From: Promethearchaeota archaeon
GTDB taxonomy: Archaea; Asgardarchaeota; Lokiarchaeia; Sigyniarchaeales; SOKP01
Direction of reading: 5' to 3'
NCBI GenBank assembly: GCA_019058295.1
Contig: JAHPZI010000007.1
Coordinates: forward strand, 32,001-96,000
Length of the DNA stretch: 64,000 bases
Position numbers and translations under genes: made by a program. Shown here in pieces: positions 21,722 through 56,330 of this stretch. Position 1 is the first letter of the stretch. Every line of letters begins with the position of its first letter. The notes below the pieces were generated by a model, which was given only the letters and a program-made list of their open reading frames with translations, was not told the DNA's origin and made no database searches.

Positions 21722-22210
21722 ATGTCAAATAATATTCTTAAAGAAGATGAAATCATAATAAGAAACTATCGGACCTCTGATTATGAAGCAACACTTGAAA
21801 TATTAAAGCAACTTGATAAAGAATTAGATATTGGATTTAAAGAGGAACAGTGGAAACAATCCTCTGGTCTACGACAATTTAAACCTAATTTAAAACGTAT
21901 AACTCTTATAGCTGAATTAAAATCGACTGGTGAAGTTGTAAGTATGGGGATGCTTGAAGCAGTAAAAAATAGTTTAGGCCAATATGTTGGTTATCTGGAT
22001 AACTGGTCTACAAAAAAAGAATTTATTGGTAAAGGCGTTGGAAAAATACTGGCGGACAGAGCCATTCAAATACTTAAATCATGGGGTTGTACTTCAGTAA
22101 GAATTAATATGGGTTATAATGTAAGTAAAAAAATAATCGATGTTATTTGTAAAGGACAAGGATTTTCTCCCGTTTTTATAGTTTTAGAAAAGAAATTTGA
22201 TGAAACATAA
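21722..22210 (+). CDS. GNAT-family N-acetyltransferase
   Basis: IIIRNYRTSDY and KEFIGKGVGKIL acetyl-CoA motif. ATG 21722 preferred over TTG 21710. Confidence 0.8.
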   Translation: MSNNILKEDEIIIRNYRTSDYEATLEILKQLDKELDIGFKEEQWKQSSGLRQFKPNLKRITLIAELKSTGEVVSMGMLEAVKNSLGQYVGYLDNWSTKKEFIGKGVGKILADRAIQILKSWGCTSVRINMGYNVSKKIIDVICKGQGFSPVFIVLEKKFDET

Positions 22211-22380
22211 ATTTAACTTCTTTTCTTTATTAGCATTAGCATTTATGTTATTCCCTTTTAAACATTTTATACTTGTTTTTCACCTAAAAATCAAAATAAA
22301 TATTTTTAATCTTTACTTCTTTAAAATTATAAATTAAAATTAAAAAAAAAATAAAACAAATAAAAGGGTTGATTTTAAAC

Positions 22381-23847
22381 GTGATTGGAATAAAAACGTT
22401 TGGTGCATATTTGCCAAAGTATTTAATGCCCCGGGAGTTAGTTGCTAAAGCTTAGTTTAGTTCAAATTAAGCGGAAAAAGCATGGGATTTTCCATCTATG
22501 CCAGGGACTAAAGCTTTGGCTAATTCTGACGAAGATAGTATTACAATGGGAGTAGAAGCTGGTCTTGACTGTATAACTGGAATAGATCCTAAAACAATTG
22601 ATGGACTTTTTTTTGCAACAACCACTCAAGTTTATACAGAAAAAAATTCAGCAGCATTTATAGCAAATATATTAGATTTAAGGGATGAGATTATTACTGC
22701 AGACTTCACAGATTCCTTAAGGGCAGGAACCACTGCTGTATGTAGGGCAGTCGAAGCTATAAAAGCAAATAAGGATATTAAAAGTATCCTTGTTATCGCT
22801 GCTGATACTAGAGAACCTGAACCAGGTACATTTTGGGAATATGGTTTGTCTGATGGGGCTGCTGCCTTACTTATTGCGGAAGAAGATTTATTACCACTTT
22901 CAATTGAAGATTATTATTCAGTTTCGGCAAATGTTACTGGTCCTTGGAAAAAACCTACAGATAAATTCATTAAAACATTTCAAGATAAAATGGATAATAA
23001 ATTCTATTTTGAAAGCTTAACAAAAGCTATGAGTGGACTTTTAGAGAAAAATAATTTAAAACCTGAAGAAATTGCTAGTGCTGCGTACCATTATCATGAT
23101 CCTAGGGTACTTGGGATAGTTTCTAAAATGATGAAATTTCCTCAAGGTGTTGCTCAAAATGGATTATTTCTTCAAATAGGGTGTGTTGGAACTCCAATGG
23201 CATTCTTGTTATTGATGTCTGCTTTAAGAAGACCCAAACCTGATACTAAAATAATTTTTGCGGGATATGGAGATGGTGCTGATGCAATTTTATTACAAGT
23301 AAAAGATAAAGATCTTTTAAAAGCTTCAAATAAGGGAAGAATGGGCTTGTTAAAACACCAAAAATCTATGGCACAATTAAAAAATTATAATACGTTAATC
23401 GAAAATAAGAAACTTATCGATAGACATAGATATTCAAGAAGGAGTTCAGCTGTTACACTCTGGCGGGATACTAAATCTTTATATCAGATGTATGGGATTA
23501 AATGTAAAAACTGCGGAACTATTCAATATCCAGCGATGTTTAAAGGTTGCTATAACTGCAGAACAGATGATCAATTTGAATTTGTAAAACTCTCTTTAAA
23601 AGGGACTGTTTTTACTTATACTTTGGATCATTTGTATGGAGGGAGTTATTTAAATACTCCTGTACCGAGATGTATAATTGACTTAGAAGGCGGTGGGCGT
23701 ATAATGCTTGATATGACTGAAATTGAAAATCCAACTGAAAATGTCAAAATTGATATGCCGGTTGAATTAACTTTCCGATTAATGCATGAAGGCGGAGAAT
23801 TCCGCAATTATTATTGGAAATGTCGCCCTGTAAGGGGGAGACCATAA
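22381..23847 (+). CDS. HMG-CoA synthase-like condensing-fold protein fused to a DUF35 (Zn-ribbon/OB-fold) domain; interrupted by a 30-nt insertion at 22449-22478
   Basis: GTG 22381 gives MIGIKTFGAYLPKYLMPRELVAK/AWDFPSMPGTKALANSDEDSITMGVEA, in frame with track ORF 22498. C-terminal CKNCGTIQYP..CYNC, GTVFTYTLD, YYWKCRP. Confidence 0.85.
22449..22478 (+). other. Candidate bulge-helix-bulge (BHB) mRNA intron, 30 nt, with in-frame TAG and TAA
   Basis: Hairpin GCTTAGTTT/AAATTAAGC, two AAA bulges (22447-22449, 22477-22479), central TGCT/GGAA helix. Removal restores VAKAW. Confidence 0.6.
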
Positions 23848-23861
23848 GAGAGGTGAAAAGA

Positions 23862-25040
23862 ATGGTTAGAAAAGGAATTGCAGATAAAATTGCGATAATA
23901 GGATGTGACGCCACAAAATTTGGTGAAAGATGGGATAAAAATCAATATGATTTATTATACGATGCAGTTAAAGGTGCCAGAGATGATGCTGGAATAACTA
24001 AGGATGAGATTGATGCGGTTTGGGTTGGGATATTTTATTTCTTTACAGGGCTTTCAGGGGCAGTAGTAGAAGATATTTTAAGATTGGATGGGAAACCAGT
24101 TACTAGAACGGAGAATTACTGTGCATCGGGAATGGATGCTTTCAGAAATGCTTGTTTTGCTCTTGCTGGTAATGCATATGATGTTGTTCTAGCATGTGGT
24201 GTAGAAAAATTAATGGATGAGGCCTCTAGTGGATTACCTGGCTTTGAATTGTTTGGTCATCCCACATTACCTATACCTTCTGCTCCAGCAATGTTTAGCT
24301 TGGCAGCAACAAGATCATTTCACACATGGGGGTGGACTAAGGAGGATTTAGCTCGGGTTGCTGTTAAAAACCATGAAAATGGCTCTCATCATCCAAAAGC
24401 ACATTTTCGGAGACCAACTACAATTGAAAAAGTAATGAGAGATGTTATGATTGCAGACCCCTTAGGGAGATCTGATTGTTGTGCAATGAGTGATGGAGCA
24501 GCAGCTTTAATCTTAACAAGAATAGAAGATGCTCCAAGTTATTCTTCGCACAAGGATGATTATATAGTTGTAAAAGCGAATGCGATATCTTGTCAAACAA
24601 ATACTCCTTGGTATAATCCAAATCACACCTTCACAAGTTTTCCAGCAACAGTAAAAGCTGCGAAAATGGCTTACAAAGAGGCAGGTATTACAGATCCTAG
24701 AAAACAAATCGATTGTGCTGAAGTTCACGATTGTTTCACGATTACTGAACTTTTAAATTGCCAAGATTTACAATTCTGTGAGATGGGAAAAGCAGCTGAA
24801 GAATTAAAAAACGGAACTTTTAATTGGGATGGTGAAACTGCAGTTAATCCATCCGGTGGTTTAAAATCCTTCGGTCATCCAATAGGTGCTACAGGATGTA
24901 GAATGCTACAAGAAATAACCAAACAACTTCAAGGAAGAGCCGAAGGCAGACAAGTTCCTGACGCAAAAATTGGTTTGGCTCATAATCTTGGCGGAGCATT
25001 TTGTGTCTGTAGTACTAGTATTTTAGGACAAGCAGATTGA
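23862..25040 (+). CDS. Acetyl-CoA acetyltransferase (archaeal/SCP2-type thiolase)
   Basis: GAGGTGA RBS then ATG 23862; ENYCASG, AEVHDCFT, NPSGGLKSFGHPIGATG, HNLGG. Confidence 0.93.
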   Translation: MVRKGIADKIAIIGCDATKFGERWDKNQYDLLYDAVKGARDDAGITKDEIDAVWVGIFYFFTGLSGAVVEDILRLDGKPVTRTENYCASGMDAFRNACFALAGNAYDVVLACGVEKLMDEASSGLPGFELFGHPTLPIPSAPAMFSLAATRSFHTWGWTKEDLARVAVKNHENGSHHPKAHFRRPTTIEKVMRDVMIADPLGRSDCCAMSDGAAALILTRIEDAPSYSSHKDDYIVVKANAISCQTNTPWYNPNHTFTSFPATVKAAKMAYKEAGITDPRKQIDCAEVHDCFTITELLNCQDLQFCEMGKAAEELKNGTFNWDGETAVNPSGGLKSFGHPIGATGCRMLQEITKQLQGRAEGRQVPDAKIGLAHNLGGAFCVCSTSILGQAD

Positions 25041-55535: not shown

Positions 55536-56330
55536 TTATTTTCCAATAAATTCAGGTTCTTTTTTATCGATTAATGCAGATACTCCAATTTTATAGTCTT
55601 CACTTTCCGCTGACTTAATCTGCATCTGTCTTTCATTCTCAAGATGTTCTTTAAATGGTGTATTAAGTGCGTCAAAAAATAATTCTTTCGTTCTCGCGAA
55701 AGTTAAAGTGGGGCCTCTGGCTAATTTTTGAGCCCATTGCAGAGTAACTTCTTCTAAATTTTCTGCTGGTACAATTTCATTTACAAATCCGAGTTCTTTC
55801 ATTTGTTTAGCATTATATGTTTCTCCAAAAAAGGACATTTCTACTGCCTGTTGCCATGTAAGTTGACGACTTAATAAAATCGTTCCAGCAAAACCTGGAA
55901 TTAAGGCAAGTTTAACAAAAGATTGTCTAAATCTCGCATATTCAGAAGCTATGATAAAATCACATGAAAGCGCAAGATTCATCCCTGCACCCACAGCCCA
56001 GCCGTTCACGGCTGCTATAACTGGTTTTGGATAAAGACGTAAAACTAATGCGATTTTATAAAGTACTCTAAGCAATTCATCCATTACCTGACCCGGATTG
56101 CCATCTTCAATACTAGCCTTAAATTGTTTTATATTACCACCTGCAGAAAAAGCTTTTCCTGAGCCGGTAATTATTACACATCTTACCTCGTTATTATTTC
56201 GAAGCGATTCTAAGGCATCTAATATTTGCTGCCCTGTCTCTTTATTTAATGGATTTGAATTCTCAGGATCATTAAATTTTATCGTTGCAATTTGATATTT
56301 AATTTCTAATTCAATTTTTTTTTCTGACAT
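55536..56330 (-). CDS. Enoyl-CoA hydratase/isomerase
   Basis: AFSAGGN, PKPVIAAVNGWAVGAG, LALSCD. Confidence 0.92.
   Translation of the reverse strand: MSEKKIELEIKYQIATIKFNDPENSNPLNKETGQQILDALESLRNNNEVRCVIITGSGKAFSAGGNIKQFKASIEDGNPGQVMDELLRVLYKIALVLRLYPKPVIAAVNGWAVGAGMNLALSCDFIIASEYARFRQSFVKLALIPGFAGTILLSRQLTWQQAVEMSFFGETYNAKQMKELGFVNEIVPAENLEEVTLQWAQKLARGPTLTFARTKELFFDALNTPFKEHLENERQMQIKSAESEDYKIGVSALIDKKEPEFIGK

Follow-up and report, generated by a model that had tools for sequence, protein, structure and literature searches.

In a 64,000-nucleotide (nt) stretch of an Asgard archaeal genome, hereafter the window (G000:C7:32001-96000), a gene for an HMG-CoA-synthase (HMGCS)-like/DUF35 fusion protein at 22381-23847 is interrupted in frame by a 30-nt insert at 22449-22478, between codons 24 and 25. 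We suggest that this insert is probably a bulge-helix-bulge (BHB, tRNA-type) mini-intron that lies within the coding sequence and is spliced from the mRNA. The source is a metagenome-assembled genome (MAG), G000 (3.2 Mb, 79% complete, 31% G+C), and related MAGs such as AMARA_1S, TEKIR_6S and Loki_b32 are deposited as Promethearchaeota/Lokiarchaeia. The initial annotation had allowed that the insert might instead be the footprint of an insertion that inactivated the gene. We favor a BHB intron over such a footprint because the insert is restricted to one clade, its host gene is under purifying selection, the changes within it fall only at unpaired positions, other inserts with BHB geometry occur in the genome and genus, and the genome encodes a splicing endonuclease (EndA) that belongs to the (alpha-beta)2 class.

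In the mechanism that we propose, the gene would be transcribed together with the insert, and the pre-mRNA would fold into a hairpin of 9 bp with an AAA bulge on either side, the bulges being set across a weak helix of 4 bp (UGCU/GGAA). Each bulge would be cut past its second base by the heteromeric (alpha-beta)2 splicing endonuclease, and an RtcB-type ligase would join the exons, probably circularising the 30-mer. The spliced mRNA would then read ..ELVAKAWDFPS.. and give the full protein of 478 amino acids (aa). Cleavage and ligation are the steps that we infer. It had also been suggested that splicing gates expression. We found no evidence for such a regulatory role, and no role beyond neutral persistence is indicated.

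The insert and its predicted fold

The frame from GTG 22381 reads MIGIKTFGAYLPKYLMPRELVAKA up to TAG 22453, then FSSN, TAA 22468, AEKA and WDFPSMPGTK.., and continues to the stop at 23847. Downstream of the two stops it runs on as ..AEKAWDFPSMPGTK into a 449-aa open reading frame (ORF) from ATG 22498. The family-typical N-terminus is therefore blocked as the initial annotation had described, with all of its coordinates correct. A Shine-Dalgarno-like GGGT lies about 14 nt 5' of GTG 22381. Exon 1 shares 79% identity and 100% similarity with the N-terminus of an intron-less relative (P0003), and it aligns with the solved HMGCS/PhlA structures from their residues 3-6 onward. Removal of 22449-22478 gives ..PRELVAKAWDFPS.., which is colinear with every intron-less ortholog, and the predicted N-terminus becomes MIGIK..VAKAWDFPSMPGTK. 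The predicted spliced junction is GTTGCTAAAGCATGGGAT, that is GTTGCTAA/AGCATGGGAT, while the junction of the circularised 30-mer is predicted to be ..GCGGAAAA/AGCTTAG...

The handedness of the motif was checked on tRNA-Pro(UGG) of G000, in which an outer helix is followed by a 4-nt strand, a 3-nt bulge, the inner hairpin, a second 4-nt strand, a second 3-nt bulge and the other side of the outer helix. The central-helix strand thus lies 5' of each bulge, and the cut falls after base 2. In the interrupted gene, GU 22441-42 pairs with GC 22480-81 as a 2-bp outer helix, and UGCU 22443-46 pairs with GGAA 22473-76 as a central helix with 3/4 pairs; the bulges are AA/A and AA/A, and the inner stem has 9 bp. 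Only one of six sequence-equivalent registers, 22448/22449 with 22478/22479, gives a BHB, and it is the one that restores VAKAW. The earlier claim that cutting after the second bulge base removes exactly 22449-22478 holds, and the handedness is correct as well; the 9-bp stem, the AGUUC loop, the UGCU/GGAA pairing and the direct repeat AAAGC (22447-51 and 22477-81) are likewise all present. The strict hBHBh' motif is absent, since there is a G44.A75 mismatch and a U.G pair in the central helix (the imperfection of which the initial annotation had warned) and the outer helix consists only of U.G and G-C. For a relaxed motif (HBh'-like) we required that one or more 3-nt bulges separate the central helix from a stable helix, and that the two cut sites have the right handedness and spacing. 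Such a motif is present: one AAA bulge lies beside the 9-bp stem, the second AAA lies exactly 4 nt past the stem, and joining after the second bulge base restores the functional sequence.

Distribution of the insert and fate of the interrupted gene

The orthologous locus was fetched from 40 relatives and the upstream frame was read. We observe the insert in eight sequences, which comprise four species-level genomes of one genus (G000, G007, G005 and G002) and other contigs, the further carriers being JGI Ga0209536, Ga0568915, GCA_019058335.1 and one Logan contig. The proteins of the four genomes are 91-98% identical and share ten extra codons. The other 22 full-length orthologues read ..(I/V)xKAWDFP.. 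and are unbroken, and the sister lineages, at 87% identity, likewise read through ..KAWDFP... Empty sites are found in the closest intron-less lineages (ABR05, Loki_b32, a Logan contig and DZ1B.199; 83-89% identity). In DZ1B.199 (L068) the site reads GTTGCTAAAGCT/TGGGATTTTCCATCTATGCC, and the flanks of L068 are identical to those of G000. Compared with these sites and with the orthologs, the insert is an exact 30-nt insertion, and the alignment that the initial annotation had proposed as a check confines it to a single clade. In a maximum-likelihood tree the carriers form one branch (100/98) nested among intron-less lineages, so that one change explains the distribution. On this comparison the intron would trace back to a single gain, by the ancestor of a small clade within one Promethearchaeota (Loki-type) genus.

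A repeated mobile element was ruled out, because the insert is single copy in each carrier genome, is present in only 4 of 121 genomes of the family and gave no paralogue in a blastn-short search. The uninterrupted site has no guide-like matches of 18 nt or more beyond chance, such as a role in protection from a nuclease might involve, and Rfam gave no match in 22000-23000. The AAAGC repeat, which had been read as a possible insertion footprint, does exist. It is not diagnostic of a target-site duplication, since the similar bulges AA/A-GC explain it equally well.

Among the carriers dN/dS is 0.08-0.33 at a dS of 0.10-0.16, and on these values the host gene is under purifying selection. Exon 1 keeps its GTG start, the upstream GGGT and an open frame free of indels in 8/8 carriers. 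Only 6 of its 68 sites vary, compared with 18% of the third codon positions of exon 2 (P=0.023), and the four residue changes in it (F>Y, K>R, M>V, E>D) all match states found in intron-less orthologues. Within the insert, the variable positions among the eight carriers are 22449, 22460 and 22475, all of which are unpaired in the model (chance about 0.03). The change 22449 A>T in QM1B.325 affects a bulge base; G22460A in the JGI contig L047 affects a loop base and is the sole variation in the inner helix element; and A22475G, again in QM1B.325, falls at the mismatch position of the central helix. Although the tests are weak, these data speak for continued production of the full-length protein, for which the 30 nt would have to be removed or skipped.

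The two in-frame stops, and the fact that all data come from MAGs and metagenomes, could also be accounted for by a young pseudogene or by an assembly artefact, i.e., the gene would be dead or the 30 nt absent from the real DNA. We consider this extremely improbable. Identical or nearly identical inserts occur in the eight sequences, which come from different samples and from NCBI, JGI, ENA and Logan assemblies, and a DNA contig of run X1 spans the insert without a difference. A dead gene is at odds with the dN/dS values above and with the lack of any other lesion across 1.4 kb.

Several observations nevertheless weigh against splicing. Of the central-helix positions, one is a G.A mismatch and another a U.G pair, and there are 2 bp in the outer helix. 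The fold is not above chance (z-score of -0.49 against shuffles). RNAfold gives a minimum free energy (MFE) structure of -15.5 kcal/mol, compared with -7.6 kcal/mol for the BHB conformer, and pairs UGCU with AGCA 22479-82 instead; the 36-nt excision (22449-22484) that this MFE fold suggests was rejected since it would delete the invariant Ala-Trp. Motifs as loose as this one are no commoner genome-wide than a wrong-handed mirror control, and the structure alone therefore has no statistical weight, nor can introns in G000 be counted in this way. The genome-wide BHB census, which used ORF joining and codon-usage scoring, recovered the inserts of uL11 and Sec61beta together with that at 22449-22478; the scan proposed initially thus finds further cases and no enrichment over the mirror control. 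The significance of the insert comes from the comparative data, not from its structure. The carriers, however, are little diverged, which makes the conservation tests weak. In G000, at 79% completeness, RtcB was not detected, though it is present in 5/5 congeners searched, three of them carriers.

The search for RNA evidence, which had been recommended from the start, turned up two metatranscriptomes in which a small part of the gene is represented, the contigs being placed at 85% likeness. In these two, no RNA contig crosses 22449-22478 or bridges the site. One RNA contig (X19) starts at 22477 and is preceded by CTTATTGCT, in which 3 of 9 letters differ from exon 1 of G000. It is probably from an intron-less relative, and we did not count it as evidence. 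Full-length and N-terminal fragment queries for the spliced form detected no 478-aa product of the carrier clade in protein collections of 5.8 billion clusters; the 478-aa matches are intron-less relatives known from DNA. In the carriers' own cluster of ten members, all eight full-length members are called at 449 aa. Public records such as TFG01522.1 start the carrier protein at ATG 22498, 29 N-terminal residues short, and translation of a truncated protein could begin at this ATG, which has a GGGA about 14 nt upstream.

It is on this last point that another explanation rests, in which the insert is a tolerated lesion that is never removed, the 449-aa protein from ATG 22498 works and the N-terminal mini-exon is decaying. 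The spacing of the GGGA is like that of the real start, all public annotations give 449 aa, dN/dS of exon 2 cannot separate a truncated protein from splicing, and the RNA contigs give no sign of splicing. We nonetheless regard this explanation as unlikely. In every solved homologue the alignment of residues 2-29 begins at the first strand, and a protein from Met 22498 would therefore lose a core beta-strand and the invariant AWDFP. The same Met codon is found in the intron-less P0003-P0005, L064 and L066 (PSMPGTK), and it therefore did not arise to rescue initiation. The lack of stops and indels in exon 1, its reduced variability, and the retention of its start codon and Shine-Dalgarno-like motif by all eight carriers do not suggest decay.

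Translational bypassing of the type seen in T4 gene 60 and in mitochondrial byp elements would yield the same protein if the ribosome skipped the 30 nt, with take-off at AAA 22447-49 or GCU 22450-52 and landing at AAA 22477-79 or GCA 22480-82. The insert resembles T4 gene 60 and Magnusiomyces byp in being a short stop-containing gap with a 5' hairpin, similar edge codons and a continuous protein. AAAGC is present at both ends, a stop directly follows GCU, and the stable hairpin starts at the take-off region. Because the product is identical, comparative data do not discriminate between bypassing and splicing. T4 gene 60 and byp, however, act at the ribosome and need identical codons, whereas the codons at 22449-22478 differ in one lineage (QM1B.325 has AAU at take-off and AAA at landing) and the geometry fits EndA. 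As codons, GCU and GCA differ, and the AAA/AAA pair has no stop following it, so the arrangement falls short of a bypass element. Inserts of 28-32 nt in this genome and genus obey exact BHB geometry, and these include tRNAs, for which translation is irrelevant. We know of no translational bypassing in archaea, nor of any elements of the T4 gene 60 or byp type there. Bypassing is therefore very unlikely in our view, and we return to a BHB intron as the preferred reading.

Splicing enzymes, similar inserts and the host protein

Two EndA paralogues of about 200 aa are present in G000, at C1:120809-121411 and at about C26:58772-59377. Paralogue 1 keeps Tyr/His/Lys, has the A. pernix alpha subunit as its best match and contains an L1/CSL loop region with a Lys. 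In paralogue 2 the His is gone, and its match is to the structural half of alpha'2 (two-domain) models. The EndA of G000 is thus predicted to be an (alpha-beta)2 enzyme with an L1 loop, the loop of broad specificity, and to take relaxed motifs. Asgard (alpha-beta)2 EndA with an L1 loop has been linked to the cleavage of relaxed motifs (PMC5829648; also a 2026 bioRxiv tRNA census). As to the EndA/RtcB-dependent mRNA splicing envisaged in the initial annotation, the EndA pair in G000 and the comparative data speak for it, while the RtcB component could not be located in G000.

The tRNA introns of G000 are 28-30 nt long and have the same layout. The insert at 22449-22478 is like those of tRNA-Pro (UGG, 28 nt; GGG, 28-30 nt, with a 3/4 central helix) in its size and in the order of its parts: a single base precedes a hairpin of 6-9 bp, a 4-nt strand that pairs with the 5' exon follows, and two bases come last, the bulges being A-rich. 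It differs in its outer helix, which in the tRNAs is the 7-8-bp anticodon stem but here has 2 bp and then an internal loop, and in its host, an mRNA. Introns are predicted in 10/44 tRNAs of G000. An ARAGORN call of 'tRNA-Stop(tta)' with a 2114-nt intron (G000 C16:12782-14988, - strand) is probably false.

Protein genes of the genome and genus contain comparable inserts (Table 1). Those of uL11 and Sec61beta both have 4/4 central pairs and a 6-bp inner helix, with outer helices of 7 bp and 9 bp, respectively, and the removal of each restores a conserved protein sequence. The 30-nt insert of the actin gene has a relaxed motif (H 3/4, AA/A, a 7-bp stem and a 2-bp outer helix). A second actin insert (31 nt, frameshifting, near SLKTF/KMWV) was set aside since no BHB fits in the register that restores the frame. 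In the rtcB insert all positions of the central helix pair (UUGG/CCAA), the stem has 9 bp, the bulges are AU/A and AA/A and the outer helix has only 2 bp; taking the insert out restores the active-site motif GGVGYDINCG. Between G002 and G006 two of its stem positions differ, and pairing is kept at both. If this insert is an intron, the ligase required for splicing would itself require splicing.

Table 1. Features of the interrupted gene and of comparable inserts (window positions unless a contig is named)
Feature	Position	Strand	Description
Exon 1	22381..22448	+	68 nt: GTG start and 22 2/3 codons (MIGIKTFGAYLPKYLMPRELVAK, Lys codon bases 1-2)
Exonic BHB half	22441..22446	+	Outer-helix GU and central-helix strand UGCU; invariant in 8/8 carriers
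5' bulge AAA	22447..22449	+	Predicted cut 22448/22449; geometry like tRNA-Pro(UGG), uL11 and Sec61beta of G000
30-nt mini-intron (candidate)	22449..22478	+	A, 23-nt hairpin, GGAA and AA; TAG 22453, TAA 22468
Inner helix h'	22450..22472	+	9-bp stem GCUUAGUUU/AAAUUAAGC, arms 22450-58/22464-72, one G.U; loop AGUUC
Intronic central-helix strand GGAA	22473..22476	+	U43-A76, G44.A75 mismatch, C45-G74, U46.G73
3' bulge AAA	22477..22479	+	Predicted cut 22478/22479; join GCU AA/A GCA UGG = AKAW, as in orthologs
Exon 2	22479..23847	+	Rest of HMGCS-like domain and C-terminal DUF35/OB domain (Pfam PF01796)
Thiolase-family partner gene, intact	23814..25040	+	Pfam thiolase domains; NCBIfam acetyl-CoA acetyltransferase 494 bits, above cut-off
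uL11 insert	G000 C30 ~126,400-126,700	-	30 nt, in frame with stop; canonical hBHBh'
Sec61beta insert	G000 C30 ~55,990-56,200	-	32 nt, frameshifting; canonical hBHBh'
Actin insert	G000 C2 ~177,000-177,200	-	30 nt, in frame without stop; removal gives TRRE/YKEMGP
RtcB insert	L075 G002:C3:15700-16200 (carrier); L076 G006:C13:33170-33670		29 nt, frameshifting

A bona fide HMG-CoA synthase would have its cysteine in an (E/F)AC(K/Y)AGT motif and reach the equivalog score. The host protein does neither: it scores 169 bits with the NCBIfam HMGCS models, for which the cut-off is 244, and it has Leu (DSLRAGT vs FACKAGT) at the nucleophilic Cys of 6esq_I and 1xpk, as in PhlA, the Cys-aligned reference enzymes being the HMGCS of M. 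thermolithotrophicus and S. aureus. Its sequence is HMGCS-like without being that of a typical HMGCS, and its chemistry may be other than HMG-CoA synthesis. As had been stated initially, the rest of the gene and its thiolase partner are intact, the ORF running to 23847 and the thiolase assignment being supported by Pfam and NCBIfam. With its DUF35 fusion and thiolase neighbour, the gene resembles a PhlA-PhlB/PhlC-type or thiolase/HMGCS/DUF35-type complex. Given the Leu for Cys, the score below the cut-off and the PhlA-type context, we make no claim of an essential role in lipid synthesis. Many orthologues (L010, L042-L046 and L059) have ATA, ATT or ATC at the MIGIK start position and are shortened by gene callers to 434-466 aa, a pattern that suggests the use of non-canonical start codons by the family. 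Truncated orthologues (434-469 aa) were considered as second introns and rejected as gene-caller artefacts of ATA/ATT/ATC or TTG starts.

Comparison with known introns and significance

An intron in the cbf5 pre-mRNA of Crenarchaeota was reportedly described by Watanabe in 2002. The cbf5 intron has a relaxed BHB, is associated with a heteromeric EndA and shows patchy gain and loss (Yokobori 2009, PMC2738675). The insert at 22449-22478 is like it in all three respects, and also in being short, in lying inside a coding sequence, in cut sites between bulge bases 2 and 3, and in the mis-annotation of its gene by gene callers. The two differ in host, which here is an HMGCS-like/DUF35 gene of Asgard/Promethearchaeota; in position, the cbf5 intron lying at the catalytic Asp codon whereas the present insert is in frame with two stops; and in age, the present gain being very recent and clade-restricted. 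Moreover, cbf5 splicing was shown by cDNA and in vitro cleavage, whereas our insert is known from DNA alone. A further mRNA substrate of the splicing endonuclease is HVO_1309 of Haloferax volcanii, which has a BHB intron in its 5' untranslated region (UTR; PMC7714728). That intron is circular on excision. It differs from the present insert in its length of 46 nt, its place in an untranslated leader, its alpha'2 enzyme and the fact that it interrupts no reading frame.

Our full-text literature search found EndA-type splicing within a coding sequence confirmed only for crenarchaeal cbf5 (PMC2738675, PMC7714728), the gene to which the initial annotation had mainly tied mRNA BHB introns, and no report of such an intron in an Asgard protein-coding gene. 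A 2020 paper still had cbf5 as the sole case in a coding sequence and added the Haloferax 5' UTR intron (PMC7714728). The present locus is of interest for its host lineage, for a very recent gain with preserved empty sites and for its relaxed motif. As a datable young gain with known empty sites in sister lineages, it is good material on intron origin. It also has a consequence for annotation, since every public record of the carrier gene starts 29 residues late.

We lean, by a small degree, towards the view that the insert at 22449-22478 belongs to a large set of mini-introns, spliced by way of the endonuclease, in the protein genes of Loki-type Asgard archaea. If this is true, even metabolic genes and rtcB itself would need their mRNA to be cut and rejoined, and relaxed motifs of this kind would indicate that the Asgard (alpha-beta)2 enzyme polices a broad and recently expanding set of introns within coding sequences, in the prokaryotes most closely related to eukaryotes. 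Confirmation of splicing at this locus would add to the case for routinely interrupted protein genes in Asgard archaea, and such genes would bear on ideas for the origin of split genes in eukaryotes.

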